NCBI GenBank assembly: GCA_016748015.1
Contig: JAAOMT010000441.1
Coordinates: 449,128-513,127, forward strand
Length of the DNA stretch: 64,000 nucleotides
Source: Geosiphon pyriformis uo1
Taxonomy: Eukaryota; Fungi; Glomeromycota
Direction of reading: 5' to 3'
The notes under the pieces were generated by a model. The model was not told the DNA's origin and made no database searches. It worked only from the letters and a program-made list of their open reading frames with translations. Positions 749 through 31,424 of the stretch are shown here, in pieces (within the stretch, counting starts at the first letter, position 1; each line of letters starts with the position of its first letter). Made by a program: the position numbers and the translations under genes.

Positions 749-960
749 TATTACCAGACAAAATTAGAGATATTATTTAGCATAAAATTATCTTATAATT
801 CCTATCATTAATTAGCATATATTATCGTTTCAAATTATCACTTATTACATTAGCAAAAATGTCCGAAATTATCATTTAATTAATAACCCAAATTGTACAC
901 AACACAAATGTAACCTAATTGCAATGATCAATCATGCAATACCCTGAACTATGTAATATT

Positions 961-1100
961 CAAAAGTTCGCCAAAATTTATAGAAATTTGCCGAAATAAT
1001 TGATAGTTCACCGAAATATCTAATAGTTCACCGAAATATCTAATAGTTCACAGAAATAACTTGTAGTTTGCCGAAATTTATCTTTAGTTCAGCAAAATTG
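961..1100 (+). repeat. 20-bp tandem array in LTR U3 (core GTTCRCCGAAA); 7 units here, 6 in the other LTRs
   Basis: Units begin at 961, 981, 1001, 1021, 1041, 1061 and ~1081. Confidence 0.85.
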
Positions 1101-1148
1101 TAAAAAATAACAAAGTTCAAGTTCATAGAATAGTGTTATGACAAGTTG

Positions 1149-1156
1149 TATAAAAG
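1149..1156 (+). promoter_or_regulatory. Putative LTR TATA box (TATAAAAG)
   Basis: GTTGTATAAAAGAAGAGC is identical in all four LTRs and lies just downstream of the repeat array. Confidence 0.6.
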
Positions 1157-1747
1157 AAGAGCTTCTCTCTTCGAGAAAATGTATCTTATTTTAGATTTAA
1201 CAATTAGAATCATCCTTTACACACAAAACGAAATAAATATCAAATAATTTGAAAAATCAAATCCTGAATCATTTCACTTTTGAAATTAACTAATTTCTAC
1301 AAAACAGTTTGAAATTGATTAGCTACCAATTTCAGTAAACTGTTAGTGACTTCAGGCCTGGATAGAAAATGTTTCTCTTAACAAAATTCTATTTCTTTTA
1401 CATTTCTTTTATTTTTCTTTTCTTTTCTTTTTATAATCATTAGAGTAGCCTACAGACAAGATTTCTGTAGAAGAGTTGACTTTCACAGCAAAGTAGCTAT
1501 ACATTTTAGTGAGCTTCCAGATGAGCAATTTCTGGGAAAGAGTTGACGTTTACTACAACGTAACTATATAAAGTAACTGGCACAGAATTGGTCATTCCAC
1601 TTATAAGCCCAGCAGTTCAAATTATAGAAGATAATTTGAAGATAAATTTAGTGATTGGAGGTTCAACCACATCCAGAAAACGGGAATTCACAGCAAACAA
1701 GCATTGACAACATTTAAGAAAAAAGACCAAAAACCTCCAGTAACATT

Positions 1748-1758
1748 TGGTGCTCTCC
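1748..1758 (+). promoter_or_regulatory. Primer-binding site (TGGTGCTCTCC)
   Basis: TGG starts 2 nt after the LTR end; copy 2 has TGGTGCTCT at 15686-15694. Complementary to a tRNA 3' end ...GAGAGCACCA. Confidence 0.75.
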
Positions 1759-1790
1759 CATGGAAACAACACAGCAAAAACAACTTCAAA

Positions 1791-4700
1791 GTGGTGACCA
1801 CACCAGACACAACAACTCTAGAGTATTACCAATCAATTTATACCCACTGCAAGCAAAGATTCAACATTCCAGACAGAATTAAAGTTGTCAAGAAATCAGT
1901 ATACCAATACATTGAAAACTGCATCAACAATTATCTTTTTGGAAATTACAATATTTCAGAAGTTAGAAGCAACCTTTACAATAATTTAACACACTATTCA
2001 CAGTTGGGAACTGAAGACCTTAATAGTGAAACACTTGCCACTTACTTTCACAAACTTAATTTTAACATTATCAAATACTGTGAAAAAACATATCCAGTGC
2101 AGTCTTAATACACTATTGATTTTGAATTGGAAACAGAAACAAGCAACAAAGGCAAAAACAAATTAAAGCAATATTCAAGAACCACCCCAAATACTCCAAC
2201 ACNNNNNNNNNNNNNNNNNNNNAAATCAGTATACCAATACATTGAAAACTGCATCAACAATTATCTTTTTGGAAATTACAATATTTCAGAAGTTAGAAGC
2301 AACCTTTACAATAATTTAACACACTATTCACAGTTGGGAACTGAAGACCTTAATAGTGAAACACTTGCCACTTACTTTCACAAACTTAATTTTAACATTA
2401 TCAAATACTGTGAAAAAACATATCCAGTGCAGTCTTAATACACTATTGATTTTGAATTGGAAACAGAAACAAGCAACAAAGGCAAAAACAAATTAAAGCA
2501 ATATTCAAGAACCACCCCAAATACTCCAACACTACCAAAAACAACTGCCAAACATTTACAAACACCTGAACAAGGAACCAGCTCAAAACTTCTATTTACT
2601 ATCACATCTTTTCTAGCTTCACTTGCACAAGCACAAACACCTAATTCACTCTTGAATCGATTTACAAGACCAGAAGATTTTACATCACTCAAAAGTCCCA
2701 CCAGACAACAAGAATCCCTTCAAACTAGTTTCAATCTCCTTGATTTTCTAGCTGAAAATCAAAGTGAACACTCTGAGACAGCAGCAAATGAAAAAAACAA
2801 CTCTGAAATAACTGAAAAAGAATCAATAGACAGTAAAAATAAAGAAGACGAAATAACAACATACATCGCAAAAATCCCTGAATTCAATGGAGAAGATATT
2901 GAGACCAGTCCCCAAGAATGGCTTGACCAAGTTACTAAAGCTGGAGATGCAAATAGATGGAATGCTGCCAGAATGTTAAGAACAATTCCCTACTTTCTCA
3001 AAGGAACAGCAGGAGAATAGTTTGAAAACTTGGCTGCCCCATTCAATGATTGAAACGCTTTCAAAGCAGCCTTTCTTGAACAGTTCACCGACAATAATAC
3101 TTCCATCACCCTTTGCAATTGTTTTTGAAATATCAAACAAGAACCCTCTGAATCTGTTATGACTTATATTGGGAAATTCAACAAACTTCTCAGACAAATT
3201 CGCCAACTCGAAACAAACGATTATTATTCCAATGCTTAAATCTTGGATCAATTTATTGCTGGTCTAAAAGATAAACTAATTAAAAAGGTTCGCCCACATG
3301 TGCCAGAAGATTTAAACTCTGCCATACAGCATGCGAAAAGATACGAAATGGCCATGGAAGAGACCAACCACACAAAACTTGTAAATTTGGCAATTGGAAA
3401 AACCAGCTTAGCAGCTGAGGAAAAAATTGACCAACTCACAAAGAAAGTTGAAAACTATTTCACCAATCAACAACAACAGCAACCCCAAAGATATCAACCA
3501 CCCCAAAGACGAAATCAAAATAACTTTGCACCACTTTCCAATATCCAGCCTTAGAATTGCCATTACTGTAGAATCTCTGGCTACTGGAGAAGAGATTGCA
3601 AAAAGCTACAACAAGACCAACAAAATAGAAGTAATCAATGTTACCCTCCACTACAACAATCTTATTATCAACCGCCACCACCAGCTTACTATCCACCAAG
3701 ACCCCAATACCAAAATAACTATTATCAGCCTGCCTCACAGCCAATCCAACAGCAATACCAACAACTGCTCATCCAACATTATCAAGTACCTGTTCAAAGA
3801 CTGCTTACACAGAATCCATTCATACCACAAAACCAATACCAAGTAAACAACAATAGAATCAGTTCGAATAACCAATTGGTTTCTCGAAATACCACTCAAC
3901 CAAGACCCAACCACTACCACACTCAATCCAGTTATTTAACAATGCCAGAAGAACAGGATTTTCACCATACTGTACTCTCGGAAGGTAGAGCTGCAGCACA
4001 ACAACAACAAAATCCTTCCTATACTCCCACTACAATTCCACCAGCCAGAATTGCTGAAAACACTAACCTTTCAAATATATTCCCTTTTAAGTTCAAAGCA
4101 AATAAGTCACCATTTCTGCTTAGCAATGCAGCCGCCAATGAACAAAAAGCAATCACGGCCATGTACACTAAAGCCGAAGTTGAAGGAAAAACAATTTACT
4201 TGATCCTAGACAGTGGATCCGCCGGAAGCATTATCACCTACCAGTTAATGCAACAGTTGAAAAGAAATGTCAACCGACCAGCTCAAACAGTAATCGTCAC
4301 TGCCGATGGCATGAAAAAGACCCCAGTAGGAGAAATTGACAATTTTCCATTCACTCTTGATGGAATCACCATTCCAGTCAAAGTTCTTGTAATGGACGCA
4401 CCCTAGTACCAAGCTCTCATCAGAAATGATTGGCTTCAAAAAGCCAATGCTAATCTGAATTGGAAAACACAAGAATTAACAATTTCTTACCAAGGACAAC
4501 ATGCCCGGGTACCTGTCATTTGTGGTACATTCAACAAATGCTCTGAAAAAGCCCTGGCTTTTGAATTCGAACTGGAAGAGGAAAAACCCCTCATTAAAAC
4601 ATTCATGGCTCTGGGATTAACGTCCAATTGGGCTGATGAAACAGAACAAGAACATTTTACCCCACACACTAAATCCGAAATCTCTGGATGGAATATATCT

Positions 4701-7700
4701 TACTCAAAACCCAAACCAAGGAAACAACGCCCCTATATTCCTCTTAAATATAAGAACTGTCACAAGAAACTATTGTCAATGGGAGCCTGCATTTCACCTG
4801 AAGAAGAATATGAGAATCATACTTGTTATTACTGCAAGGCTTGCCACAGAGAATGATGGGGCCATCTAATAAAAAGAAGTGGAAAATAGGACAACACCCC
4901 TTGTTTGACTTGTGGAGATATGCTACCAGAAGAATGCAATTAGATTGATGTAGCCATGAGAGGAGGAGTCTGCAATCAGACCTGCCAATATGCTTTATCA
5001 ATTTCAGAAAAAGTAAAAAGAGGAACACCCTTTAATGCAGCATACAACAGTGCTTTTAACAAACTTTATCACTACCCCCATGATGCCAAAATGATTTTCG
5101 ACCTAGCAATGGCATTAATTAATAGAGCTACCAAAGAAGATGTTCACCAAATGAAGGAAGCAGAATACATTGAATACACCATGAAATTAGCTGGATTTGA
5201 TTACGAAGACGAAGTAAAAATCTACCACCAAATTGCAAGTCACACCTACCCAACCCAAGAAGCTCAAATTCAATGATTAGAGCAAATGAACATTAGGCTA
5301 TGTGAAGAATGTATTATGCCTTGTGATGAACAGTGGTGTTCTGAATGCTATGCTCTTAGCATTCCCTTGTCCAGCAAAAATGATAAATATGAAATTGAAT
5401 TTGGAGAACTTGAAGTGACAGAAGAAATTGAGACAACACCCATCTATCTCATCAATAATCAGCCTGCTTTACAACTCAAATATTTCAACAACAATGGACA
5501 AGGAACAGAAAAAGCCCACAAGATCAATGTTGGATATGATCTAAGATATCCAGGAAAAGATACTCTTACTCTCAAACCCAAATCTCTCACAAAAATCAAC
5601 CTCAAAATTGCCCTCAAAATCCCACCAGAAGCAATGGTTCAAATTGCTTCTCGATCATCCTTGGCAAGCAAAGGAATCAATGTTAGAGGAGGAATCATCA
5701 ATGCTGGATACACAGGAGACATTACAGTCATGTTACAAAATAAAACTGATAAATCTTTCAAAATTGGATATGCTGAAAAAATTGCTTAAGCTATCTATTT
5801 ACCCTTAATCAATATTTTGGGTTTACAATTAGTTAATCAAAGAGAACAGTTGGGAAAAAGCGAAAGAGGAATACAAGGTTTTGGTTCAACTGGACGTTTC
5901 ACAGTTCCAGTAAACATAGCTCTCAATGAACAGAAAGAATCTCACCAGATTTTACAACTTCCACAACCAATTACCATTTCACCCTTTGGAGAACACCCTG
6001 AAATTTACATTTGTAAAAAGCCAACAACCACACAACAAATTTTTGAATCAAACAAACAAATCTACTTGAAACATAATATCTTGATCCCAAACATTTATAT
6101 TCCAGAAGGAACAAAGAAAGTCTGAGTTACTTTTTACAATCCCAACAATTATCCTATAGTTTTATTAAATAACTTAGAAATTGGAATCATTCACAGTAAT
6201 ATCTTTCAACAAGAATTACCCCAAACAGTCCCCGATTTTTCTGAAATTATTGGACATTCACTACCAAAAATCAACTCAAACCCCAGCTCTGAAAACTACC
6301 ATATTGTTATGGAAAAACTATCTCGAATCAACATGGGACAACTTGAACCACAACAACAAAACCAGCTCAAAAAACTAATTGCAGATTTTGCCGATATCTT
6401 TGCCAAAAACAACAATGACTTAGAAAGAACCGATTTGGTGCAACACTAATACAAGAGATGCCAAACCAAGGCGACAACAAGCCTACCGAGTTGCTCCAGA
6501 AAGCCACCAATTTATCCAAAAAGAAGTACAACAGATGCTTAACAATGGGCTTATCCAACCATCAATGAGTCCATGGGCCTCACCAGTGGTCCTGGTTAAA
6601 AAGAAAAATGGAAAGATACGATTTTGTGTTGATTATCGACAACTCAACAGTGTCACTATTGAGGATGCTTACCCTCTTCCGTGAATCGATGACATGTTAG
6701 ATGCCCTTGGAAAATCTAAATACTTTTCAACATTAAACCTAGAAAGCGGATACTGGCAAGTTGCCATGGATCCCAAGGACTGCCCCAAAACAGCATTCAC
6801 AACACAAGGAAGAAACTACAAATTCAATGTAATGCCCTTTGGATTATGCAATGCGCCAGCAACATTCCAAAGACTCATGGATGTTGTATATGCTGGACTC
6901 CTTTGGAAATCAGTAGTTGTCTATCTTGATAACACTGATGTTTATTCTCCATCTTTCGAACTTTATTTAATTCACCTGTGAGAAGTTTTTCAACAATTAC
7001 GTAGAGCAGGATTAAAACTAAACATTGAAAAATGCCATTTTGGAAAAACAAGTTTGGTCTTTCTTGGTCACATAGTTAATGAAGAAGGAGTCAAACCAGA
7101 TCCAGGAAAAATCAGTGCTGTTAAGAACTTCAAAGTTCCACAAAATACTACAGAACTAAGAGGATTCATAGGATTAGCATCCTACTATCGGAAGTTTATC
7201 AAAGAATTCTTGGAAATTGCAAAACCCCTCAACCAGCTCACCACCAAAAACGTTGAATACAAATGGACTACCAAACACCAAAAAGCTTTTGAAATCCTCA
7301 AGAAAAAACTAACAACAGCTCCAATCCTCGCCTACCCAGATTTCAACAACCGATTTCGACTAGCTACAGATGCTTCATATACTGCCTTTGGTGCCATCTT
7401 ATCACAACTAAATGACAATGGAAATGAGCAAGTAATTGCCTATGCTAGCAGAACATTAAAACCAGCTGAGAAAAACTACTCTGCCACAGAACTAGAAACA
7501 GCAGCTGTAATTTGGGCCCTACACCACTTCAACCTTTATCTCAGGCCTAAAAAATTCGATATTATCACTGATAATATTGGACTCAAATGGCTTCAGAACA
7601 AAAATACTCAGCTGAATGCAAAACAAACCCAATGGACAGGATTTCTAGCAAACTATTAATACATAGTACATCACAAACCAGGAAAACTCCACACCAATGT

Positions 7701-7731
7701 TAACTGTCTCTCCAGAATGAGACAAGATTAG
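1791..7731 (+). pseudogene. gag-PR-Cys-rich-dUTPase-RT-RNase H polyprotein of copy 1
   Basis: ORF pieces 2457, 3243, 3876, 4605, 4956, 5286 and 5817 share one frame. Motifs: capsid IPEFNG..WL; knuckle CHYCxISGxWxRDC; PR ILDSGSA; dUTPase GYDL/RSS/GYTGDI/GFGSTG; [39 protein letters not shown]; RH TDAS, YSATELE; ends SRMRQD-TAG. Many nonsense codons and one frameshift near 6447. Confidence 0.92.
5500..5900 (+). pseudogene. dUTPase domain within Ty3 copy 1 polyprotein
   Basis: All five trimeric dUTPase motifs recognisable: VGYDL, ASRSSLA, GGII(N)AGYTGDI, KIA(Q>stop)AI, RGIQGFGSTG. Confidence 0.92.
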
Positions 7732-7783
7732 AAAAACACAAAAACCAACACTCAACTTAACCAACCAAAAAAGCCAACAAACA

Positions 7784-9168
7784 ATAAATTCGAAAAACTA
7801 CAATGATCTCAAACAATATTTGGAAACATTAACAATCCCAACAGATTGGTCTTCAGAGGAAAAACATCGACTACAACAACAAGCCAAACAATATTTTCTA
7901 CACAACAACATTATTTATTACCGAAATTTCAAAAACTCAGACAAACCACTCAGATTAATACAAGAACAGGAAAAAGAAACTATATTATACAACATGCACT
8001 CAGATCCTTCATCAGCCCACTTCAGAAAAGACAGCACCACCCAAAGAACACTAGAATACTACTTTTGGCCTCAAATAAGAAAAGACATTCACGAATATGT
8101 CGAATCTTGTGATAGTTGTCAAAAAAGAGGAGGAACTTGCCCTACAGAACCTTTAAATCCAATCAAAGTTGAACAGTCTTTTGACAGAGTTGGTATCGAT
8201 TTAGTCAGACCACTACCTATCACAAACCAAGGAAACCACTACATTACAGTAGCCGTAGACTATCTCACCAAATAGCCTGAAGCCAGAGCCATTCAATGGG
8301 CAGATGCAAAATCAGTAGCAAACTTCATCTACAAAGACATCATTGTAGACATAGATGCCCAATAGAACTTTTATCTGATCAAGGAACACATTTCATGAAC
8401 AATTTAATCTAGGAAATTTGTGGACAATTTAATGTCAAGAGACCATTATCTTCATTCTACCATCCACAAACAAATGGACTGGTAGAATGGTTCAACAGAA
8501 CATTGTGTGAATCATTAGCCAAAGTTTCAACTGATTTTGAGCAAGAATGGAATCTCTTTATTCCATCAGTGTTACTAGCATATAGGACACTAAAACAAGA
8601 TATCACAAAACACACACCATTTGATTTAACTTACGGAAGGACGGCAACATTACCAATTAGTTTCACAGTGGAAACATACCCAGTACAACCAATCAATGAA
8701 AACAATTTCCAAGAAACGCTTCAACAAAGAGCCTACACTCTGCTTAGCACATTGGAAGAAAAACGACAAATAGCAGCCACTCATATTGAACACTCCCAAG
8801 CTCAACAAAAAGAATGGCATGATGACAAATTGCCTCCAGTCACCAATGAATTTAAAATTGGAAACAAAGTTCTCTTACATAGAACTAAAGCCGAAAAACA
8901 ATAAAATGGAAAATTTGAAAATAAATGGGATGGACCATTCTTTATCCATGAAGTTTTAGGCAACAGATCATATAAGCTAAGACTTGATGACAAAATTCTA
9001 GCAAAAGTTGCACATGGAGATCGTTTGAAACACTATAATTCCAGAAACAATTCTGAACTATTAATTCCACAAATTGGTACACATTTCCCTTTAATCAATT
9101 CCAAAGACATTCCCCAAAATTTAGAACCAATAGTTGTCATTGAACAGCCTCACAACTTGAATACTTAA
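7784..9168 (+). pseudogene. Integrase of copy 1 (separate ORF; start ATG mutated to ATA)
   Basis: HHCC (HSDPSSAH...CDSC), D (RVGIDL), D (LSDQG), E (GLVE), GPF motif (WDGPFFI). 1-nt deletion near 8343. No chromodomain. Confidence 0.9.
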
Positions 9169-9289
9169 TTTAAATTTATTATTATAGTTATCTTCTTATA
9201 ATTTAGAAACAATCTCACAAAAACAAAACAAAAATAACATAAAAACCCATGCACCAAAAATAATTTTCTTTTATTTCAAATTGCTTATA

Positions 9290-10009
9290 ATGACTATTCC
9301 TCAAAACATTCAACAATTATCCCAAAAACTAATGTTGGTTTTAAAAACAATACCCAAATTATCCATTACTGTTACTGAAAACCACATTAATTATACCCAA
9401 ACAGAAGTAGTTACAAATTTAGCCCCAAATTCACAAAAATATCACCCGTATAAGAAGAACACAAGAAGTTATACTGGAATTTACCTGCCAGAACTTTTAA
9501 AACTTGCTTTAAGAGAAAACCTAATGCTCACTTTGATTAGTATTCCACCAAATGCTACAATTCAACAAAGACTTCAACTGTGTTTCAATGAGGAAAATAC
9601 TGAATATCCTTCAATCTATAGATATTTTCACATTGGAAAAACACTCTACAAATGGAAACTGGAACTTACAACAGCAAACCTCACAAAAAAAGCTATTCAG
9701 AAACAACTTCACAACAAATTCAAGACAACAGCTGAATCAACAAACAGTCGCTACAGGCTTAGAGCTGCTCTTAGACTTTATGACTTATTCCACACCTGTG
9801 AAAACATACTACAAAACCCAAATTTTCAACCTTTGAAGATTCAATACATTGGAAAGCTCACAGAACTGAAATTTCAACAATTTTCAGACCAAATTTCTTC
9901 AATAATTTTGGATTATTATCTGGAAATGACAAACAGTACTTGGACTTTGACAGAGCTCAGTCTTGAAGAGGAGGTTATGTTACCAGACAAAATTAGAGAT
10001 ATTATTTAG
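9290..10009 (+). CDS. ORF3, uncharacterised 239-aa accessory protein in env position (intact frame)
   Basis: ATG at 9290; uninterrupted to TAG inside the 3' LTR. Same length (720 nt) as the homolog in copy 2. Confidence 0.8.
   Translation: MTIPQNIQQLSQKLMLVLKTIPKLSITVTENHINYTQTEVVTNLAPNSQKYHPYKKNTRSYTGIYLPELLKLALRENLMLTLISIPPNATIQQRLQLCFNEENTEYPSIYRYFHIGKTLYKWKLELTTANLTKKAIQKQLHNKFKTTAESTNSRYRLRAALRLYDLFHTCENILQNPNFQPLKIQYIGKLTELKFQQFSDQISSIILDYYLEMTNSTWTLTELSLEEEVMLPDKIRDII
9965..9974 (+). promoter_or_regulatory. Polypurine tract (GAAGAGGAGG)
   Basis: Ends 3 nt before the 3' LTR; GAGAAGGAAG at 23291-23300 in copy 2. Confidence 0.8.
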
Positions 10010-10954
10010 CATAAAATTATCTTATAATTCCTATTATTAATTAGCATATATTATCATTTCAAATTATCACTTATTACATTAGCAAAAATGTCCGAAATTA
10101 TCATTTAATTAATAACCCAAATTGTACATAACACAAATGTAACCTAATTGTGATGATCAATCATGCAATACCCCGAACTATGTAACATTCAAAAGTTTGC
10201 CAAAATTTATAGAAATTTGCTGAAATAATTGATAGTTCACTGAAATATCTAATAGTTCACAGAAATAACTTGTAGTTCGCCAAAATTTATCTTTAGTTCA
10301 GCAAAATTGTAAAAAATAACAAAATTCAAGTTCATAGAATAGTGTTACGACAAGTTGTATAAAAGAAGAGCTTTTCTCTTCGAAAAAATGTATCTTACTT
10401 TAGATTTAACAATTAGAATTATCCTTTACACACAAAACGAAATAAATATCAAATAATTTGAAAAATCAAATCCTGAATCATTTCACTTTTGAAATTAACT
10501 AATTCCTACAAAACAGTTTGAAATTGATTAGCTACCAATTTCAGTAAACTGTTAGTGACTCCAGGCCTGAATAGAAAATATTTTTCTTAACAAAATTCTA
10601 TTTCTTTTACATTTCTTTTATTTTTCTTTTCTTTTCTTTTTATAATCATTAGGGTAGCCTACAGACAAGATTTTTGTAGAAGAGTTGACTTTTACAGCAA
10701 AGTAGCTATACATTTTAGTGAGCTTCCAGATGAGCAATTTCTGGGAAAGAGTTGACGTTTACTACAACATAACTATATAAAGTAACTGGCATGGAATTGG
10801 CCATTCCACTTATAAGCCCAACAGTTCAAATTATAGGAGATAATTTGAAGATAAATTTAGTGATTGGAGGTTCAACCACATCCAGAAAACAGGAATTTAC
10901 AGCAAACAAGCATCAACAACATTTAAGAAAAGAGACCAAAAACCTCTGGTAACA
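9978..10954 (+). repeat. 3' LTR of copy 1 (977 bp)
   Basis: TGTTACCAGA...TCTGGTAACA, a perfect 10-bp terminal inverted repeat. Confidence 0.95.
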
Positions 10955-11682
10955 CTGTTCAAACAAGCATTCAGAAGACCATCCAGCCCAATAGACATCA
11001 AGACAGCCAAGTGATCTGTGTCAAAAAATTCTGAGACAAAACCAACATCATGATTTACAACAGCTGAAATCAAAGAGTCACTAACTAGAATATAGTCCAA
11101 AACCTTGCTAATGCCTCTTGAATTGCTCCAAGTAGGAATCCTAGCTAGAGAATGGCCACCAAAAACATTAACTAGACCCAAACCTAAGCATTTTCTAAGA
11201 CTCACCCTCTTGACTGAATTGTCTTTATTAAAGTCCCCACCCAAAACAACAAAAATACTTTTGTTAACAGTATCAGCAATGAATGAATTGATAACAAAAG
11301 CCTGAGCAAAATGGTCACCACCAGACACACAAGCATAAAGCCCAATGATAGACACAGAGAGCTTGTTCTTAAACAAAAGACAAATTGAAAGAACTTTGCC
11401 CTTTACCTCCTCAACTTTGAAAACATGACAAGCCAGAGAATCATTCACAAAAATGGCCACACCAGCCCCACAAAACCCAACATCCAGACCAAACATAAAA
11501 ACCCAAACACTCTCAAATTTTTTCATAATCCAAGGTTGTGAACTGGAACACAACTTGGTTTCTGTAACAATCAAGATTGAACTACCAGATTCCTTATACC
11601 AATGAAAAATGTTCTTCTGTTTTGCAGGATTGTTCATTCCCCTAATATTACACATGGCAATTTTCCAAATAAAACTGGTCAT
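10955..11682 (-). pseudogene. LINE-A ORF2 N-terminal APE endonuclease
   Basis: MTSFIWKIAMCNIRGMN...VTETKL...GGDFN...TWSN...LDYI...TDH. ATG at 11682 overlaps the ORF1 stop. Confidence 0.92.
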
Positions 11683-13506
11683 TGTGACAAAGAGATAACC
11701 AAAGAACCTGAGCCAGCACACAACTGATCCAACTTAGCCAAAATCAAACCAACAGAGATGTTGAGGGCAACCAACTTCAACTCTAGACCACCAACTTTGG
11801 AAGTCAAGACTTTGGAACTACTCAGACCCAAGAGCAGATCAGTAACACCCAGAGAGAAAGAAGTAGGCTGAACAAAAAGATCATCAACTGCCATGTCAAA
11901 ATCCAAGTCGGAGTTTGTAACCACAAGAAAAACAGAGGTTGGAGACTGAGAAACAACCACAGAAGGAACCATTTGAGAGGAGGGTGCCAAGAGTGCCAAA
12001 CCAATATTGTCAAGACGAGAAAGAATGTTCAAAATTTGATCAGACAGAAGCCCTACAGAGCATTCTAAAAGCGCTAAGCGAACACTCAAAGGAGAATTGA
12101 CCACAGATATAGAGGGAGGTGCCTCACCTGAACTTAAAGTACTGGAAGGCGGGGAACCGGAACCAGAACCAGCATGAAAACCATGAGAGACTAAAGCAAC
12201 TGAGACCACTTGAGCCCAAGATTTGCCACCAAAGGCAACAGGACGAGAGATTAGTACATTTTTCTTTACATACAATTTGGCCAGCTGGAAATAAGTATCT
12301 AGGTTGGCAGGTCTTATAAAAAACTTTGAAGATTTAAGAGCTGATGCAACCTCAGCATCACATTTCAAGGCAGAATGACCGAACTTCCCACACTATTCAC
12401 AGTAAACCAAATTCAGCCTAGCCCATGAGAGTTTTACACCACCAAAAATTGGCTCCGTACGAAAAGCTAACTCCAAAACCTCATCAGAATCAAAACAAAC
12501 AACAGCACAGCAGACCCTATTACCAGTCTCTAATAACCAATTTATGACACAAGTCTTTTCACCAGCCCCTTCAAGAAGATCCCCAAAATCATGAGCAGTA
12601 GTTCCTACTGGCAAAATAAACAAAAGCGCCCTGAACTGATTTCTAGATGCCCAAGTTTCATGATAGCCCACCGCCATAGCCACACGAACCAAATCTTTAC
12701 CAATCAGGAAGGACCACCTAGCAGCCAAAAACACAGCCTGTTCCAGTTCAGCAAATTCCACCACAGCCTTTTGCCATAAACCAATTAACTGGATTTTAAT
12801 CGACTTAATTTTTCCAAACTCGGATACTGTGGCGATAATCATTTCCTTGATTACTACGGCCTGATCTGAGTAAATTCTTTGTCTTTTAAGATCACTGTTT
12901 ACTATGATGTTATTTTCTCTGGCCAATAACACGGCCTTTTCCATGCTTTCTGACAAAGTAAACATTGATTTGATGATCCCTTCAAATTTTAAGGAAGTAG
13001 TGGCCCCCCCAAAACCATTGATTTCTGAAAATAATTTCCTTATGACCTAAGTTTTAGCTGTTGCCGATTTCCCTTCTACAGCCAAAAGATTGATATTCAA
13101 AGCAAAAGATTTCTTCACAGCTACTTCCACCAGAGTTTTAACAATTTTGGGGTCCACTCACATCTTTTCTAAAGAGAAAGACAAATGGAAAGAAAGAGAA
13201 ACTTCCTTCTCATCATCTATGTCATAATTAATAGAGCCAAAAAGGGAACTGATAGCCACACCAGTATTAAAACACTTTGCATTAGGTGTATTCATTTGGG
13301 AGTCAGAAGTGGCTCTACTATCAAAGTCTTCTCCATCCGTATCCATGCTAGTAAGTTGCCCATTCACACTAACAGGCCCACTATCTTTAAGATTCTTATC
13401 CGCACTTGAAAGTTTAAGGCTTTTTGACTTTTTGAGTTAAACCACCACCAATTGAACTAGTGGTCAAGACTCTGGCAGACCTTCTCTTAGCACTAGGACC
13501 ACTCAT
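11679..13506 (-). pseudogene. LINE-A ORF1 (RRM-like, zinc knuckle, C-terminal coiled region); 5' limit approximate
   Basis: VSEFGKIKSIKIQLIGLWQKAVVEF, CExCGKFGHSALKC and RPVAFGGKSWAQV, homologous to ORF1 at 45832-47790. Confidence 0.85.
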
Positions 13507-14069: not shown

Positions 14070-14701
14070 ACACATATACAGCAATATTCTATTTGGTCAA
14101 AATTTGTTTTATAATATTCACTAAATATAGACATATACTAATATTATATCAATATTTACTTTTTATTTAAAGATATTATAATTTGTTTAACTAATAGCTA
14201 ATATATACATATATACATATATACACATATATACAGTTTAAGATATTGCTAATATTAATGATATTTTAAGTAACAAATGATTATTATTTGGCCAAAATTT
14301 GTTCTATAATATCTGCTAAATATAAGCATGTACTAATATTATATTAATGTCTACTTTTTATTCAAAAATATTATAATTTGTTTATCTAATAGCAAGAATA
14401 CATACATATATATATACAGTTAAAGGTACTGCTGATATTAATAATATTTTAAATAACAAGTGGTTGTTGTTTGGTTAAAAGTTATTATATTATATTAATC
14501 AAACATAGATATATACTAATATTATATTAATGCATACATTTTATTCAAAAATATTATAACTTGTTTATCTAATAGCAAGAATATACACACACATATATAT
14601 ATAGCCAAAAATGCTATTAATATTAGTAATATTTTAAATAACAAGTAGTTGCTATTTGGCTAAAATTTGTTATATTGTATTAATCAGATATAAGTATATG
14701 C
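14070..14701. repeat. ~185-195 bp tandem repeat (about 4 units; the 4th continues at 24290)
   Basis: Anchor CTAATATTATAT recurs at 14138, 14333, 14516 and across 14701/24290. Length variation lies in an (AT)/(AC) tract. Confidence 0.85.
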
Positions 14702-15683
14702 TGTTACCAGACAAAATTAGAGATATTATTTAGCATAAAATTATCTTATAATTCCTATCATTAATTAGCATATATTATCATTTCAAATGATCACTTATTA
14801 TATTAGCAAAAATGTCTGAAATTATCATTTAATTAATAACCCAAATTGTATACAACACAAATATAACCTAATTGCGATGATCAATCATGCAATACCCCAA
14901 ACTATGTAACATTCAAAAGTTTGCCGAAATTTATAGAAATTCACCGAAATAATTGATAGTTCACCGAAATATCTAATAGTTTGCAGAAATAACTTGTAGT
15001 TTGCCAAAATGTATCTTCAGTTCAGCAAAATTGTAGAAAATAGCAAAGTTCAAGTTTATAGAATAGTGTTATAACAAGTTGTATAAAAGAAGAGCTTCTC
15101 TCTTCGAGAAAATGTATCTTACTTTAGATTTATCTCTTAAAACCGTTCTTATACACACAAAAAAAAATAAATATCAAATAATTCGAAAAACCAAATTCTT
15201 TAATTATTGTACTTGGAAAATCCCCAAAACCCAACTAACATTTCGAAATTGATTAGCTACCAATTTCAGTAAACTGTTAGTGACTCCAGGCCTAGATAGA
15301 AAACGTTTTCCTTGATAAAATCCTATTTCTTTTACACTTCTTTTATTTTTCTTTTCTTTTCTTATTACAATCATTAGGGTAGCCTACAGATGAGATTCCT
15401 GTAGAAGAGTTGACTTTCACAGCAAAGTAACTACACATTTTTAGTGAGCTTCCAGATGAGCAATTCCTGGGAAAGAGTTGACATTTACTACAACATAACT
15501 ACATAAAGTAACTGGCAAGGAATTGGCCATTCCACACATAAGCCCAGCAAATTCAAATTATAGGAGATAATTTGAAGATAAATTCAGTTACTGGAAGTTC
15601 AACCACATCCAAAAAACGTGAATTCACAGTAAATAAGTATTAACAACATTACAGAAAAGAGACCAAAAAAACCTCTGATAATA
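14702..15683 (+). repeat. 5' LTR of copy 2
   Basis: TGTTACCAGA...TCTGATAATA (transition-mutated end). Confidence 0.95.
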
Positions 15684-15730
15684 TTTGGTGCTCTTCTACA
15701 GAAACAACACAGCAAAAAAACAACTTCAAA

Positions 15731-18700
15731 GTGGTGATCACACCAGACACAACAACTTTAGTGTATTACCAATCAATTTACACCCACTGCAAGCAAAGAT
15801 TCAACATTCCAGACAGAATTGAAGTTGTCAAGAAATCAGTATACCAATACATTGAAAACCACATTAACAATTATCTTTTTGGAAATTACAATATCTCAGA
15901 AGTTAGAAGCAACCTTTACAATAATTTAGCACACTATTTACAGTTGGGAACTAAAGACCTTAATAGTGAAACACTTGCCACTTACTTTCACAAACTTAAG
16001 TTTAACATTATCAAATACTGTGAAGAAACATATCCAATGCAGTCTCAATACACTATTGATTTTGAATCAGAAACAGAAACAAGCAACAAAGGCAAAAACA
16101 AATTAAAGCAATATTCAAGAACCACCCCAAATACTTCAACACTACCAAAAACAACTGCCAAACATTTACAAACACCTGAACAAGGAACCAGCTCAAAACT
16201 TCTACTTACTATTACATCTTTTCCAGCTTCACTTGCACAAACACAAACACCTAATTCACTCTTAAATCGATTTGCAAGACCAGAAGATTTTACATCACTC
16301 AGAAGTCCCACCAGACAACAAGAATCCCTTCAAACTAGTTTCAATCTCCTTGATTTTCTAGCTGAAAATCAAAGTGAACACTCTGAGACAGCAGCAAATG
16401 AAGAAAACAACTCTGAAATAACTGAAGAAGAATCAATAAACAGTGAAAATGAAGAAGACGAAATGACAACATACATCGTAAAAATTCCTGAATTCAATGG
16501 AGAAGATATTGAGACCAGTCCCCAAGAATGGCTCAACCAAGTTACTAAAGCTGGAGATGCAAATGGATGGAATGCTGCCAGAATGTTAAGAACAATACCC
16601 TACTTTTTTAAAGGAACAGCAAGAAAATGGTTTGAAAATCTTGCTGCCCCATTCAATGATTGGAATGCTTTCAAAGCAGTCTTCCTTGAACAGTTCATTG
16701 ACAATAATACTTCCATCACTTTTCGCAATCATTTTCGAAATATCAAACAAGAACCCTCCGAATCTGTTATGACTTATATTGGAAAATTCAACAAACTTCT
16801 CAGATGGATTCGCCAACTCGAGACAAACAATTATTATTCTGATGCTCAAATTTTGGATCAATTTATCACTGATCTAAAAGATAAACTAATTAAAAAGGTT
16901 CGCCCACACGCGCCAAAAGATTTAAACTCTGCCATACAGCATGCAAAAAGATATGAAATGGCCATGAAAAAAGCCAATCGTACAAAACTTGTAAATTTGG
17001 CAATTGGAGAAACCAGCTCAGCAGCTGAGAAAAAAATTGACCAACTCACAAAGAAGGTCGAAAACTATTTTACCAACCAACAACAACAACAACCCCAAAG
17101 ATATCAACCACCCCAAAGACAAAATCAAAATAACTTTGCACCACTTTCCAATAACCAGCCCCAGAATTGCCATTACTGTGAAATCTCTGGCCACTGGAAA
17201 AGAGATTGCAGAAAGCTGCAATGAAACCAACAAAATAGAGATAATCAATATTACTCTCCACCACAGCAATCTTATTATCAATCATTACCACCAGCTTACT
17301 ATTCACCAAGACCCCAATACCAAAATAACTATTATCAGCCCATCCCACAACCAATCCAACAGCAATACCAATAACCACCCACTCAACATTATCAAGTACC
17401 TACTCGAAGACTGATTACACAAAATCAATTTACACCACAAAACTGATACCAAGTAAACAACAGTAGAATCAGTTTGAACAACCAATTAGTTCCCCGAAAT
17501 ACCACTTAAACAAGACCCAACCATTACTACACTCAACCCAGTTATTTAACAATGCTGGAAAAACAGGATTTTCACCATACTGCACTCTCGGAAGGTAGAG
17601 CTGCAGCACAACAACAATGAAACCTTTCTCATAACCACACCACTATTCTACCAGCCTGAATTGCTGAAAATGCCAATCTCTCTAATATCTTTTCTTTTGA
17701 ATTTGAAGCAAATGAATCACCATTCTTGCTTAGCAATGCAGCGGCTAATGAGCAAAAAGTCATCACTGCAATGTACACAGAAGCTGAAATAAAAGAAAAG
17801 CCAATTCGCTTGATTCTAGACAGTGGATCTGCTGGAAGCATTATTACCTACCAGTTAATGCAACAGTTGAAAAAAAATGTTGACTGACCAGCTCAAACAG
17901 TAATTGTCACTGCCGATGGCATGAAAAAGACCCCAGTAGGAGAAATTGACAATTTTCTATTTACTTTTGATGGAATCACCATTCCAGTCAAAGTTCTTGT
18001 AATGAACACACTCCAGTACCAAGCTCTTGTCGGAAATGATTGGCTTCAAAAAGCCAATGCTAATCTGAATTGGGAAACACAAGAGTTAACAATCTCCTAC
18101 CAAGGACAACACGCCTGGGTATCTGCCATTTGTGGTACATTCAACAAACGCTCTAAAAAAGCCCCAGCTTTTGAATTTGAACCAGAAAAAGAAAAACCAA
18201 TAATCGAAACATTCATGGCTCTTGGATCAACGTCCAACTGGGCCGATGAAACAGAACAAGAATATTTTACCCCACACACTAAACCTGAAACCTCTGGATG
18301 GAATATACCTTACTCAAAACCCAAACCAAGGAAACAACGCCCCTATATTCCCCTTAAATGTAAGGACTGTCACAAAAAACTATCATCAATGGGAGCCTGC
18401 ATTTTGCCTGAAGAAGAATATGAGAATCATATTTGTTATTACTGCAAGGCTTGCCACAGAGAGCGATGGGGCCATCTAATAAAAAGGAGCGGAAAATGGG
18501 ACAACACCCTTTGTTTGACTTGTGAAGATATGCTACCAGAAGAATGCAATTGGATTAATGTAGCAATGAGAGGAGGCGTCTGTGATCAGACTTGCCAATA
18601 TGCTTTATCAATTTCAGAAAAAGTAAAAAGAGGAACACCCTTTAATATAGCATATAATAGTGCTCTCAACAAACTTTATCACTACCCTCATGATGCCGAG

Positions 18701-21066
18701 ATGATTTTCGACTTAGCAATGGCATTAATTAATGGAGCTACCAAAAAAGATGTTCATCAAATGAAGGAAGCAGAATACATTGAATACACTATGGAATTAG
18801 CTGGATTCAATTACGAAGATGAAGTAGAAGTCTACCACCAAATTGCAAGTCACACCTACCCAACTCAAGAAGCTCAAATTCAATGATTAGAGCAAATGAA
18901 CATTAGGCTATGTGAAGAATGCATTATGCCTTGCAATAAACAATGGTGTTCTGAATGCTATGCTCTTAGTATCCCTTTGCCCAGCGAAAATGATGAGAAT
19001 GAAATTGAATTCAGAGAACCTGAAGAAATGGAAGAAATTGAAACAACACCCATCTACCTTATTGAAAATCAGCCTGCCTTACAACTTAAATACTTCAACA
19101 ACAACGGACAAGGAATAAAACCTGAAAAAACACACGAAATTGATGCTGAATATGACCTAAGATATTCAGGCAAGGATACTCTTGTTCTCAAACCCAAATC
19201 TCTCACAAAAATTAACCTCAAAATTGCATTCGAAATCCTGCCAGGAGCAATGATTCAAATTGCCTCCCAGTCCTCTCTGGCAAGCAAAGAAATCAATGTT
19301 AGAGGAGGAATAATTGATGCTGGATATACTGGAGACATAACAGTGATGCTTCAAAATGAAACTGACAAACCATTCAAGATCAAACATGCTGAGAAAATTG
19401 CCCAAGCTATTTACCTATCCTTAATCAACATTTCGGGTTTGCAACTAGTCAATCAAAGAGAACAATTAGGAAAAAGCGATAGAGGAACCCAAGATTTTGG
19501 TTCAACTGGACGATTCACAGTTCCAGTTAATATAGCTCTTAACACACAGAACAAATCCCACCAGATTCTCAGACTTTCACAACCAATTACCATCTCACCC
19601 TTTGGAGAACATCCGGAAATCTACACTTGCACAAAGCCAACAACCACACAACAAATTTTTGAGTCCAATGAACAAGTCTGCTTGGAACATAATATTTTGA
19701 TCCCAAACATTTATATTCCAGAAGGAACAAAGAAAGTCCAAGTTACTTTTTACAACCCCAATAATTACCCCATAATTTTATTAAATAATTTAGANNNNNN
19801 NNNNNNNNNNNNNNNNNNNNNNNNNNNNNNNNNNNNNNNNNNNNNNNNNNNNNNNNNNNNNNNNNNNNNNNNNNNNNNNNNNNNNNNNNNNNNNNNNNNN
19901 NNNNNNNNNNNNNNNNNNNNNNNNNNNNNNNNNNNNNNNNNNNNNNNNNNNNNNNNNNNNNNNNNNNNNNNNNNNNNNNNNNNNNNNNNNNNNNNNNNNN
20001 NNNNNNNNNNNNNNNNNNNNNNNNNNNNNNNNNNNNNNNNNNNNNNNNNNNNNNNNNNNNNNNNNNNNNNNNNNNNNNNNNNNNNNNNNNNNNNNNNNNN
20101 NNNNNNNNNNNNNNNNNNNNNNNNNNNNNNNNNNNNNNNNNNNNNNNNNNNNNNNNNNNNNNNNNNNNNNNNNNNNNNNNNNNNNNNNNNNNNNNNNNNN
20201 NNNNNNNNNNNNNNNNNNNNNNNNNNNNNNNNNNNNNNNNNNNNNNNNNNNNNNNNNNNNNNNNNNNNNNNNNNNNNNNNNNNNNNNNNNNNNNNNNNNN
20301 NNNNNNNNNNNNNNNNNNNNNNNNNNNNNNNNNNNNNNNNNNNNNNNNNNNNNNNNNNNNNNNNNNNNGCTACTTCAGAAAAACAAGTTTAGCTTTTCTT
20401 GGTCACATTGTTAGCAAAGATGGAATTAAACCAGACCCCGGAAAAATCAGTACTGTCAAGAACTTCAAGACTTCACAAAATACCACAGAATTAAGAAGAT
20501 TTATTGGATTAGCATCCTATTACCGAAAATTCATCAAAAGATTCTCAGAAATTGCAAAACCCCTCAACCAGCTCACTACTAAAAATGTCGAATACAAATG
20601 GACAGAAGAACACCAAAATGCCTTCGAGATACTTAAGGAAAAACTCACAACAGCTCCAATTCTTGCCTATCCAGATTTCAGCAACTGATTCCAGTTAGCA
20701 ACTGACACCTTTTATACTGCATTTGGTGTCATTCTATTATAGTTAGATGACAATGGAAATGAGCGAATAATTGCTTATGCTAGTAGAACATTAAAGTCAG
20801 CCGAAAAGAACTACCCCGCAACAGAATTAGAAACCACAACAGTAATTTGGGCCCTACATCACTTCAACCTTTACCTCAGACCCAAAGAATTTGATATTAT
20901 CACTGATAATATTGGACTTAAATGGCTTCAAAACAAAAACACCCAGCTAAATACAAAACAAACCTGATGAACAGGATTTTTAGCTAATTACCAATACATC
21001 ATACACTACAAACCAGGAAAACTCCACACCAACGTTGATTGTCTCTCAAGGATGAGGCAAGATTAA
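15731..21066 (+). pseudogene. gag-PR-Cys-rich-dUTPase-RT-RNase H polyprotein of copy 2
   Basis: ORFs 15731, 17921 and 18896 share one frame. Motifs CHYCEISGHWKRDC, ILDSGSA, GGIIDAGYTGDI, KIAQAI; RH ends SRMRQD-TAA at 21064-21066. Confidence 0.92.
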
Positions 21067-21115
21067 AAAACAAAACCAACACCCATTTGAATTAACAGCA
21101 TCAAAACAACAAACA

Positions 21116-22501
21116 ATGAACCCCGAAAACTACAACAATTTCAAACAATATTTGAAGACATTAACAATCCCAACAGATTGGTTCCCAGATAAAAAACATT
21201 GGTTACAACAACAAGCCAAACAATATTTTCTACACAACAACATTATCTATCATCGAAATTTCAAAAACCCAACCAAACCACTCAGATTAATACAAAAACA
21301 AAAAAAAGAGACCATTTTATACAATATGCACTCAGATCCTTCATCAGCACACTTCGAAAAAGATAGCACTACCCAAAGAACACTAGAATACTACTTTTGG
21401 CCTTGAATGAAAAAAGACATTCACAAATATGTCGAATCTTGTGATAGTTGTCAAAGAAGAAAAGGAACTCGCCCTACAGAATCTTTAAATCCAATCAAAG
21501 TTGGACAGCCTTTTAACAGAGTTGGTATCAATTTAGTTGGACCACTATCTATTACCACTCAAGGAAACCGTTATATTGCAGTAGCTATAGATTATCTTAC
21601 TAAATGGCCTGAAGCCAGAGCCATTCAACGAGCAGATGCAAAATCAGTAGTAAATTTCATCTACGAAGACATCATTTGTAGACATAGATGTCCAATTGAA
21701 CTTTTATCTGATCAGGGAACACACTTTGTGAACAACCTGATACAAGAAATTTGTGAACAATTCAATGTCAAAAGACCTTTGTCTTCGCCCTACCATCCAC
21801 AAACAAATGGACTTGTAGAACATTTTAACAGAACATTGTGTGAGTCATTAGCCAAAGTCTCAACCGATTTTGAGCAAGAATGGGATCTCTTTATTCCATC
21901 AGTGTTACTAGCATATAGGACATTAAAACAAAATACCACGAAACACACACCATTTGATTTAACTTATGGAAGGATGGCAACATTACCAATTAGTTTCACA
22001 GTGGAAACATACCCAGCACAACCGATCGATAAAAACAATTTCCAAGAAATGCTTCAGCGAAGAGCCTATACTCTGCTTAGCACATTGAAAGGAAAACAAC
22101 AAATAGCAGCCACTCATATTGAACACTCTCAAGCTCAACAAAAAGAATGGCATGATGACAAATTGCTTTCAGTCACCAATAAATTCAAAATTAGAAACAA
22201 AGTTCTCTTATACAGAACTAAAGCTGAAAAACAATGGAGTGGAAAATTTGAAAATAAATGGGATGGACCATTCTTTATCCATGAAGTCCTAGGCAATGGA
22301 TCATATAAGCTAAGACTTGATGACAAAATCCTAGCAAAAGTTGCACATGGAGATCGTTTGAAACACTATCATTCCAGAAACAATCCTAAACCATTAATTC
22401 CACAAATTGGTACACATTCCTTTTTGATCAGTCCCGAAGATATTCCCTGAAACTTAGAACCAATAGTTGTCATTGAACAACCTTCCAATCTGAACACTTA
22501 A
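21116..22501 (+). pseudogene. Integrase of copy 2 (own ATG, ~461 codons, two internal TGA)
   Basis: MNPENYNNFKQYL...HSDPSSAH...CDSC...LLSDQG...PYHPQTNGLVE...WDGPFFI...LEPIVVIEQP. Confidence 0.92.
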
Positions 22502-22615
22502 TTTAATTTTACTAGTTATTCTCTTATAATTTAGAACAATCTCACAAAAACAAAACAAAAATAACATAAAAACCCATAAACCAAAAATAAATTTTTATTT
22601 TTTCAAGTGCTTATA

Positions 22616-23335
22616 ATGACTATTTCTTAAAACATTCAACAATTATCCCAAAAACTAATGTTAGCTTTAAAAACAATACACAAATTATTCATTACTGTTA
22701 CTGGAAACCACATAAATTATACCTAAACAGAAGTAGTTACAAATTTAGCCCCAAATTCATGAAAATATCACCCGTATAAAAAGAACACAAGAAGTTATAC
22801 TGGAATTCACCTGCCAGAACTTTTAAAGCTTGCTTTAAGAGAAAACCTAATGCTCACTCCGATTAGTATCCCACCAAATGCTACAAGTCAACAAAAACTT
22901 CAACTGTGTCTCAATGAAGAAAACACTGAATATCCTTCAATCTATAGATATTTTCACATTGGAAAAACACTCTACGAACGGAAACTGGAACTTACAACAG
23001 CAAACCTCACAAAAGAAGCTATTCAGAAACAACTCCACAACAAATTCAAGACAACAGCTGGATCAACAAACAGTCACTATAGGCTTAGAACTGCTCTTAG
23101 ACTTTATGACCTATTCCACACCTGTGAAAACGTACTACAAAACCCAATTTTTCAACCTTTGAAGATCCAATACATTGGAAAGCTTACAGAACTGAAATTT
23201 CAACAATTTTCAGACCAAATTTCTTCAATAATTTTGGATTATTATCTGGAAATAACAGACAGTACTTGGACTTCGACAGAGCTTAGTCTTGAGAAGGAAG
23301 TTATGTTACCAGACAAAATTAGAGATATTATTTAG
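22616..23335 (+). pseudogene. ORF3 of copy 2 (three premature stops)
   Basis: ATG at 22616; collinear with 9290-10009 without indels. Stops are TAA/TGA at codons that are CAA in copy 1. Confidence 0.85.
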
Positions 23336-24285
23336 CATGAAATTATCTTATAATTCCTATTATTAATTAGCATATATTATCATTTCAAATGATCACTTAT
23401 TACATTAGCAAAAATGTCCGAAATTATCATTTAATTAATAACCCAAATTGTACACAACACAAATGTAATCTAATTGTGATGATCAATCATGCAATACCCC
23501 AAACTATGTAACATTCAAAAGTTCGCTGAAATTTATAGAAATTTGCCAAAATAATTGATAGTTCACCGAAATATCTAATAGTTTGCAGAAATAACTTGTA
23601 GTTTACCGAAATGTATCTTTAGTTCAGTGAAATTGTAGAAAATAGCAAAGTTCAAGTTTATAGAATAGTGTTATGACAAGTTGTATAAAAGAAGAGCTTC
23701 TCTTTTCGAGAAAATGTATCTTACTTTAGATTTATCTTTTAAAACCATTCCTATACACACAAAAAAAAATAAATATCAAATAATTCAAAAAACTAAATTC
23801 TTTAATTATTGTACTTGGAAAATTCCCAAAACCCAACTAACATTTCGAAATTGATTAGCTACCAATTTCAGTAAACTGTTAGTGATTCCAGGCCTGGATA
23901 GAAAACGTTTTCCTTGATAAAATTCTATTTCTTTTACACTTCTTTTATTTTTCTTTTTTTTTCTTATTACAATTATTAGGGTAGCCTACAGACGAGATTT
24001 CTGTAGAAGAGTTGACTTTCATAGCAAAGTAACTACACATTTTTAGTAAGCTTCCAGACAAACAATTCCTGGGAAAGAGTTGACATTTACTACAACGTAA
24101 CTACATAAAGTAACTGGCAAGGAATTGGCCATTCTACATATAAGCCCAGCAAGTTCAAATTATAGAAGATAATTTGAAGATAAATTCAGTTACTGGAGGT
24201 TCAACCACATCCAGAAAACGTGAATTCACAGCAAATAAGTATTAACAACATTACAGAAAAGAGACCAAAAAAACCTCTGGTAACA
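23304..24285 (+). repeat. 3' LTR of copy 2
   Basis: TGTTACCAGA...TCTGGTAACA. Confidence 0.95.
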
Positions 24286-30427: not shown

Positions 30428-31424
30428 TGTGATTTCAAGATTATTTAGCCCAAGTGAATTCAATGTAAGAAAAAAAGAAAGCATATAGATTTTATATAAA
30501 TTTTTTTGGTGTTGTAAAAGAAACTTGGAAGCTGTGGCATCAATAATAATAATAATAATCATCATCATCATCATCATTACTCATAACTTCATCATTTTTA
30601 CAAAGCGGCATGATAAACTAACATAATAATAAGGGGAAATGCGGTAATGCAGCAAGAGTTGTGTGTGAAAAATTCGTCATTATCATTTCACACTTTTTGC
30701 GAATCAGCCACCTGTTAGCCCAAATTCCGATTAGCAAGGAAAATGATTGGCACTATTTTAAAAGTTTTTGTTTTTGATGTCTTTTTTTTTTTTTTTTAAA
30801 TAAATTTCTTCGATTGTCATTTCATCAGGTTGATTATTAGTTCAAGAATTGAAATAGCTCATGGGGCAAGAAATTTGTTATTTAAGATTGGTTTTAGTAT
30901 GCCGAAAAAAACTTTAGGCTTAACATTAATCATTGGAAAAATGATTATTTATTTTCTGAGTCATGATGCCAAAATATCTTATAGTAGGACAGCGAAAAGG
31001 AATTGAAAAAAAGAATGGGTTAAACATATATACGATATAAATTTTAGGTTGTCATACAAATAATTCACCTTTCACAAATAAACATGAAATTCTTGTATGA
31101 CACATAGGCAAATACGAATTATAAACCTTAAATTAGATTACTGGAAAAAAACACTTGAAATGATTAAATTTGTTAAAAAAGTATCAAGACTTTCAAATGA
31201 GTCCCAATACTAAAAAGCAAAACCTTATATTCATTGATTCTATTTTGGAATATACAATTCCACTAGATATTAATAAAAAGTGATGAAATAAAATAAGATT
31301 ATTTCATTTCATCGATCAGATTCCATTTAAATTCCTAATCATCATGTTCAAATTCCATCGGTGACTTTCTATGTAGCAGAGGCTGAATTATCATAAATTT
31401 GAAAAATCTTCCATGATGATCATA

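Follow-up and report, generated by a model that had tools for sequence, protein, structure and literature searches.

ORF3, an open reading frame of 239 codons located between the integrase gene and the 3′ LTR of a retrotransposon from Geosiphon pyriformis uo1, is real and represents a conserved third gene in a lineage of fungal Ty3/gypsy elements; as comparison of its distant relatives indicates, it is under selection at the protein level. The analysis is based on a stretch of 64,000 nucleotides, referred to as the window, and followed up an earlier note, which had located this ORF in the env slot of the element and had proposed a nuclear accessory factor such as a trans-activator or an anti-silencing protein. 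The ORF with the motifs quoted there is indeed present as described, and a non-Env gene encoded by the element with a plausible nuclear role remains of that proposal, whereas no fold or family match supports trans-activation or anti-silencing in particular. Our favored reading, which we put forward tentatively and rate somewhat short of probable, is that ORF3 encodes a soluble nuclear DNA-binding accessory protein or regulator of the element.

The carrier element is three-cistronic, comprising gag-pol, a free-standing integrase and ORF3. Two copies are found in the window, the first of which covers positions 749-10954 as a whole, and the individual features are compiled in Table 1. Both copies have paired LTRs and 4-bp target-site duplications, and the Pfam domains of the two copies taken together follow the Ty3/gypsy order of gag, PR, dUTPase, RT-RNase H and IN, with matches to PR, dUTPase and RT_RNaseH in copy 1 and to gag in copy 2. 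The dUTPase domain lies between PR and RT in both of them (about 5514-5790 and 19120-19510). Integrase is usually part of the Pol polyprotein in Ty3/gypsy elements, but here it forms a separate ORF after the pol stop in all three elements that were seen as DNA, i.e. copy 1, copy 2 and L025, a metagenomic locus with a distant ORF3 homologue. The pol stop and the integrase start are 26-52 nt apart (7729-7784 in copy 1, 21064-21116 in copy 2 and 772-799 in L025), and integrase begins with ATG in copy 2 (21116) and L025 and with ATA in copy 1. A Pfam search of the IN stretch of either copy returned no chromodomain at E ≤ 0.01.

Table 1 Features of the two element copies in the window, with emphasis on copy 1 and its ORF3.
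Feature	Position	Strand	Remarks
Target-site duplication of copy 1, 4 bp	745-748 and 10955-10958
5′ LTR of copy 1	749..1745	+	LTR pair of copy 1 differs by 4.2%
gag-PR-dUTPase-RT-RNase H region of copy 1, decayed	1746..7731	+	PBS-like site upstream
Stop of the copy 1 pol frame	7729-7731	+	Immediately 3′ of RNase H
Integrase of copy 1, own ORF in another frame than pol	7784..9168	+	H2C2, rve and Tf2-like SH3 domains
AT-rich non-coding spacer of copy 1	9169..9289	+	3 gap events vs copy 2
ORF3, 239 aa	9290..10009	+	ATG 9290, TAG 10009
PY-NLS-like motif, P53-Y54	9446..9451	+
Conserved core, predicted helical, residues 105-215	9602..9934	+
Conserved cis element (pre-PPT motif, PPT and LTR start)	9953..9987	+	30/35 nt same in L025
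Polypurine tract (PPT)	about 9965-9974	+	Inside the conserved cis element 9953..9987
3′ LTR of copy 1	9978..10954	+	9-bp terminal inverted repeat
20-bp tandem array in the copy 1 3′ LTR	10220-10278	+
TATA-like box in the copy 1 3′ LTR	10358	+	3′ of the 20-bp array
Copy 2 of the element	14702..24285	+	4-bp target-site duplication; LTR pair differs by 4.9%
ORF3 of copy 2	22616..23335	+	Indel-free, three in-frame stops

Several non-coding features of the element were observed in addition. In the spacer ahead of ORF3, an A/C-rich leader comes after an AG, from which we infer a putative splice acceptor at this AG. Runs of A and C precede the start codon in the ORF3 spacers of both the window and L025 (2140-2455 in the latter) as well as in the stretches before the integrase ATG, and might possibly serve as leader or splice signals. 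The 20-bp tandem array is found in every LTR, with about 3 to 4.3 copies (copy 1 5′ LTR 991-1077; copy 2 14924-15010 and 23549-23612), and a TATA-like box is located downstream of the array in the LTRs. Beyond the two elements, the window contains decayed non-LTR (LINE-like) sequence at 10897-13046 (minus strand) and about 45700-52700, including an endonuclease (10897-11730) and an RNase H (50505-52148), and it seems that the insertion of copy 1 took place within or next to such LINE-like sequence. A 183-bp tandem repeat (14090-14693) resumes from 24286 onward beyond copy 2, which therefore inserted into this array. Two further loci are probable host genes, namely a repeat-rich LEA/apolipoprotein-like ORF at 29126-30580 (minus strand), which stays below the cut-offs for both families, and an ABC1 atypical kinase at 55697-56896 (plus strand).

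Both copies are old and dead, since the two LTRs of each pair have diverged (Table 1). That ORF3 is still open in copy 1 while gag-pol and IN carry many stops had been taken as a sign of its importance, but turned out to be a matter of chance. Over both copies, internal stops number 3 in the 478 codons of ORF3 and 18 in the roughly 2,900 codons of the three stretches of gag/pol/IN that were compared, i.e. the stop density of ORF3 is not lower than that of pol, and at the stop density of copy 1 a stop-free stretch of 239 codons has a chance of about 6-7% (0.062 with one terminal stop counted). The copy 2 homologue is 89.5% identical to the window ORF3 of copy 1 and free of indels, as had been noted, but its stops at codons 5, 37 and 49 had been left out. 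The openness of ORF3 in copy 1 is no evidence of function. A transition-based test for purifying selection did not detect any between the two window copies (N/S 0.82, p 0.6), but it lacks power, because gag gives 0.97 in it; the PR-dUTPase and IN stretches, in which divergence is greater, yield 0.51 and 0.68, respectively. The differences between the two ORF3 copies are distributed over the codon positions as 15/12/15. The divergence of copy 1 and copy 2 thus reflects post-insertion decay, in ORF3 and gag alike.

The divergence between the two copies is uneven (window 7043-9977 against copy 2: 13.7% in RH/IN, 6.1% in ORF3 and 10.2% in the LTR), which suggests that recombination between sub-lineages may have occurred. 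In copy 1, 310 nt close to the start of gag (1893-2532) are perfectly duplicated (100% identity, spacing 330 nt), which is either a recent event or an assembly artefact. The pol of copy 2 contains a run of N, several of the ORFs listed by the program in this part are artefacts, and the RT of copy 2 was left out of the comparison.

The evidence for selection on ORF3 comes from its relatives. A protein search with the window ORF3 returned 199 matches of similar length among 438 candidates; among the best 120 of these 199, all of the 119 that carry a name are G. pyriformis hypothetical proteins, and the same applies to 21 of 21 longer matches. The 120 relatives fall into subfamily A (89) and subfamily B (31), and 107 of them align without gaps, although full-length database copies are biased towards open frames, since they derive from gene calls. 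When 1.84 billion representatives were searched with a profile, 35 matches were obtained, including six distant ones (two metagenomic, four from Geosiphon). A second round yielded 63 matches (61 Geosiphon, 2 ENA metagenomes) out of 5,472 candidates. Locus scans with A1 found none among 315 candidates from metagenomes, and viral locus scans found none either. ORF3 might resemble a hypothetical-protein domain that is common in other Glomeromycota, but no search returned such proteins. In total, well over a hundred "hypothetical proteins" of G. pyriformis are, by their similarity, one and the same transposon gene.

The relatives represent six lineages, which share 21-35% identity over residues 105-212, with 70% between A and B. 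At 59 of 217 sites the majority residue of A differs from that of B, and these exchanges are milder than the 289 rare variants within the families (mean BLOSUM 0.32 vs -0.43, p 7e-4). They also tend to avoid the core, with 36 N-terminal and 23 core differences as opposed to 122 and 167 for the rare variants (p 0.01). Between more distant lineages, the ORF3 of the window and that of L025 are identical at 0.43, 0.57 and 0.40 of codon positions 1, 2 and 3, respectively (codons 1-215), where position 2 is somewhat favored by the codon alignment, which was built on the protein. Different codons are used at 36 of the 60 identical residues, and the two sequences disagree at 13 of 18 fourfold sites. 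We conclude from the pattern of substitutions that ORF3 is maintained between deep lineages by selection on the protein and not on the DNA.

The genomic position of ORF3 is conserved as well. In L025, RT-RNase H is followed by an integrase with 57-60% identity to the window integrase, then by a spacer of 316 nt and the ORF3 homologue, and finally by a PPT motif and an LTR start that are the same as in the window. Among the gene models of lineage C, integrase sequence lies N-terminally, ahead of the ORF3 part, in 17 of 39, and 7 of 141 A/B gene models contain integrase sequence. IN therefore adjoins ORF3 wherever this is checkable (both window copies, L025 and the lineage C gene models), and ORF3 represents an additional ORF of its own between pol and the 3′ LTR, which is kept across related elements.

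The end of ORF3 overlaps the DNA signals of the element. The codons of E226-E228 lie in the purine tract, M230 straddles the LTR border at 9978, and the last 10 codons and the stop belong to the 3′ LTR, so that the overlap pointed out in the earlier note is correct in its coordinates, but not as a feature of the protein, as a conserved DNA signal is simply read through. Lineages A, B, E and F have a common acidic-Met-Leu-Pro C-terminal peptide, because the conserved PPT and LTR start are read through. In lineage C, 16 of 39 models have a short xxAQF end, which is nearly what the pre-PPT motif encodes in another frame of L025, and the ORF3 of this lineage likely ends before the PPT in a different frame. 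Since the tail is dictated by the DNA and lineage C likely ends otherwise, the LTR overlap would be incidental to the protein.

ORF3 comprises, by structure prediction, an N-terminal helix with a beta-hairpin (1-38), a disordered Pro-Tyr linker (38-62) and a helical core (66-216), and it ends with the tail imposed by the DNA (about 222-239). A first AlphaFold model from an A/B-only alignment reached a pLDDT of 43 and was uninformative in the fold search. With a 28-row alignment from six lineages, the mean pLDDT over residues 1-217 was 75.9, with 79-95 in the core blocks (71-210), 54-66 in the N-terminal helix and hairpin and below 50 in the linker (38-62). The all-helical core of the model and a net charge of +9 in segment 105-170 bear out the description of a helical, basic core. 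Foldseek, in contrast, gave 0 matches at E ≤ 0.001 in PDB and BFVD with the good model, so that the suggested structural check yielded a confident core but no significant fold match. This does not make the fold new, and residues 1-73 were barely covered by the searches. The best hits of VIA-align against 48,161 chains were unrelated helical proteins at background level (Z 5.2), followed closely by the CHD1 C-terminal domain and Orc6 (both Z 5.1, background for helical bundles). A helical fragment of sigma-F was superimposed on residues 103-166 (57/57 residues, 2.3 Å) at a Z of 4.7, which is background as well and is the best match to a candidate three-helix segment predicted by the model (helices 108-128, 133-148 and 153-167). 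A homodimer prediction, run without alignment, scored 0.06.

Neither did family searches assign ORF3. No Pfam family matched the window protein at E ≤ 0.01, and in 39 members and 10 distant members there were only sub-threshold Pfam matches, apart from a fused RNase H piece. The NCBIfam family FtsQ, which matched 31 of 39 members (best E 6.7e-5; window protein 17 bits vs a cut-off of 366; PDB echo at E 0.35), was rejected as a chance match, because it was absent from the PDB search with the deeper profile and from the fold matches listed. The unnamed phrog_23683 matched 28 of 39 members (best E 1.4e-4) and covers residues 115-173, which we regard as a lead only, and the ESM Atlas neighbours of ORF3 are weak, unnamed or implausible.

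A nuclear role of ORF3 is plausible in light of its linker. For cargo of Kap104/transportin, the PY-NLS consensus is R/K/H-X2-5-PY (PMC2408616). A Pro-Tyr is present in the predicted disordered linker in 6/6 lineage representatives, five of which fit the consensus, as does the window protein. Among the matches that cover the linker, Tyr occurs in 100 of 101 and Pro in 65 of 101 (the others have L, S or F), the consensus is kept in only 56 of 101 A/B matches, and lineage B lacks the R/K/H epitope. The basic cluster follows PY in A/B and precedes it in E/F, i.e. the upstream epitope is not consistent. The PY-NLS-like motif that had been proposed thus stands in so far as the window protein fits the consensus, but there is no basic stretch upstream of its Pro-Tyr.

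With respect to DNA binding, the conserved polar residues K138 and N152 lie at a predicted helix-turn-helix junction within the basic segment, while the net charge of the whole protein varies between -3 and +20 from lineage to lineage. DUF1016_N ranked first among the Pfam families in 7 of 39 members and was found in 0 of 10 distant members; scanned singly, members reached 15.8 bits at best vs a cut-off of 32.8. In an hhalign comparison with ORF3, this family, a lead that was picked after the fact, reached 52% at a score of 30.8 vs 22.6 for the best shuffle; without A/B the score dropped to 21.4 vs 21.8 for the shuffle (probability 4-5%), lineage C alone gave no alignment, and 4 of 5 subsets agreed in register. 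The N-terminal domain of DUF1016/YhcG (PF17761; PMC1189080) has in common with ORF3 a helical stretch, about 63 residues long, which starts with a similar aromatic-Ile-Gly motif and ends in Phe/Tyr, but it is prokaryotic and fused to a PD-(D/E)XK nuclease, whereas ORF3 has no recognized nuclease domain and scores 13-16 vs 32.8 bits. The available text of PMC1189080 states no known function for the domain. We consider the DUF1016_N/HTH resemblance of ORF3 a weak lead; taken with the Pro-Tyr linker and the basic segment, it speaks weakly for a nuclear protein that binds nucleic acids.

Other explanations of ORF3 have to be weighed against a nuclear DNA-binding protein. Its env position would fit an envelope-like or membrane protein that confers infectivity. 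However, the window protein has no hydrophobic segment (best 19-residue Kyte-Doolittle mean 1.01; 2 Cys), a hydropathy scan revealed neither a signal peptide nor a membrane segment in any of 8 representatives (maximum 19-residue mean 0.44-1.29), and the representatives contain only 1-3 Cys, so there is no Cys-rich ectodomain; the model is soluble and helical, and no Env family or fold was matched. The Env reading is refuted by the sequence, i.e. by the lack of a membrane segment and the few Cys, and is hardly credible, just as the earlier note had maintained. ORF3 could also be a captured fragment of a host gene, or a frame that is open by DNA-level constraint alone, without a role for the element. 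This would be in line with the tail dictated by PPT and LTR, the decay of ORF3 after insertion like the rest of the element and the fact that the database copies were ascertained as open. Yet codon-position bias and saturated silent sites in the comparison with L025, the length and motif pattern kept in six lineages and the confidently predicted fold argue against it, and a host gene, the possible source that was to be checked, was recognized in none of the 35 profile matches (the sources of 6 of the new ones were looked up). A mere passenger is largely refuted and very improbable, and even jointly with Env it carries little weight.

Two further alternatives leave ORF3 with a function. It might be a cofactor of integration or nuclear import, which carries integrase or cDNA into the nucleus or tethers them to chromatin, and the separate integrase without a chromodomain match, the adjacency of ORF3 and IN, the conserved PY motif and the weak structural ties to the chromatin and origin proteins CHD1 and Orc6 are consistent with this idea. 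The Z-scores of the latter are, however, background for helical bundles, and the place next to IN is the usual site of extra ORFs (PMC6431247). We regard such a cofactor as rather unlikely. Alternatively, ORF3 may act on RNA or host proteins, as a suppressor of RNA silencing, as an export or translation factor for downstream cistrons or as a particle-associated protein. The three-cistron layout requires an unusual mode of expression, and many PY-NLS cargoes are RNA-binding proteins. Moreover, a related fungus silences its TEs by small RNAs (PMC8647823), and the Atlas neighbours include, at 0.91-0.93, a coat protein from a closterovirus and a translation repressor from a phage. Against this, the Atlas recognition value was below threshold with low counts of shared features, the viral fold search did not return those families and no RNA-binding family was matched. 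An RNA- or host-directed function is rather unlikely as well in our view.

Extra ORFs after pol are known in LTR retrotransposons (PMC6431247; PMC5408684). Additional ORFs of unknown function in fungal Gypsy elements, together with a dUTPase between PR and RT, resemble the situation described here (Novikova et al. 2010, PMC2864245); those elements, however, bear chromodomains, their dUTPase cases come from basidiomycetes and an ascomycete, and the likeness to ORF3 is one of layout. In bdelloid rotifers, too, gypsy-like elements that encode dUTPase have a third ORF other than Env in the env slot (Rodriguez et al. 2017, PMC5408684). The rotifer ORF3s, however, can be recognized as enzymes or membrane proteins, such as GDSL esterase and DEDDy exonuclease, whereas the window ORF3 has no family or enzyme signature. 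That a TE can encode a factor which binds tandem repeats is known from the anti-silencing VANC proteins of Arabidopsis VANDAL transposons (PMC5735166). In both cases the element codes for an accessory protein and contains short tandem repeats in its non-coding DNA, which is a functional analogy only. The VANC proteins belong to plant DNA transposons, their activity has been demonstrated, and no sequence or fold link to ORF3 was found. A description of the ORF3 family was not found in the literature covered, which did not include the original G. pyriformis genome paper or the supplement of PMC2864245, both of which may bear on novelty. The family is apparently undescribed, while extra ORFs in gypsy elements are already known as a kind.

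If ORF3 is a nuclear DNA-binding regulator, it would probably be expressed from a sub-genomic or spliced RNA, because it is the third cistron, and imported into the nucleus via its Pro-Tyr/basic linker. The basic three-helix segment (108-167) would then bind the element's own DNA, with a putative target in the LTR, e.g. the 20-bp U3 array, where the protein might activate transcription or counter methylation. This function would have belonged to active ancestors, as the window copies are dead. An anti-silencing role would fit the setting given the 20-bp array in the LTR, which varies in copy number and is of a sort frequent in VANC targets (PMC5735166), the depletion of CpG in the element (0.31-0.38) but not in a host gene (0.93) and the observation that TEs are methylated and a source of small RNAs in a related fungus (PMC8647823). 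In its boldest form, which is unlikely as a whole, the proposal would be that of a three-cistron lineage similar to complex retroviruses, whose ORF3 is a sequence-specific anti-silencing or trans-activating DNA binder with an undescribed fold, perhaps related to DUF1016_N, that aided the elements in overrunning the Geosiphon genome.

Much work has been devoted to the regulators that complex retroviruses and plant VANDAL transposons encode themselves, whereas the extra ORFs found in fungal gypsy elements are in most cases simply drawn as "unknown". ORF3 is directly testable, since it is small, predicted to be soluble and well folded, represented by six divergent lineages and provided with a candidate target in its own LTR. 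The G. pyriformis genome consists of 41.2% LTR sequence (PMC11952901). If ORF3 counters silencing, this would help to explain the LTR expansion in G. pyriformis, and ORF3 would represent a fungal counterpart to VANC.
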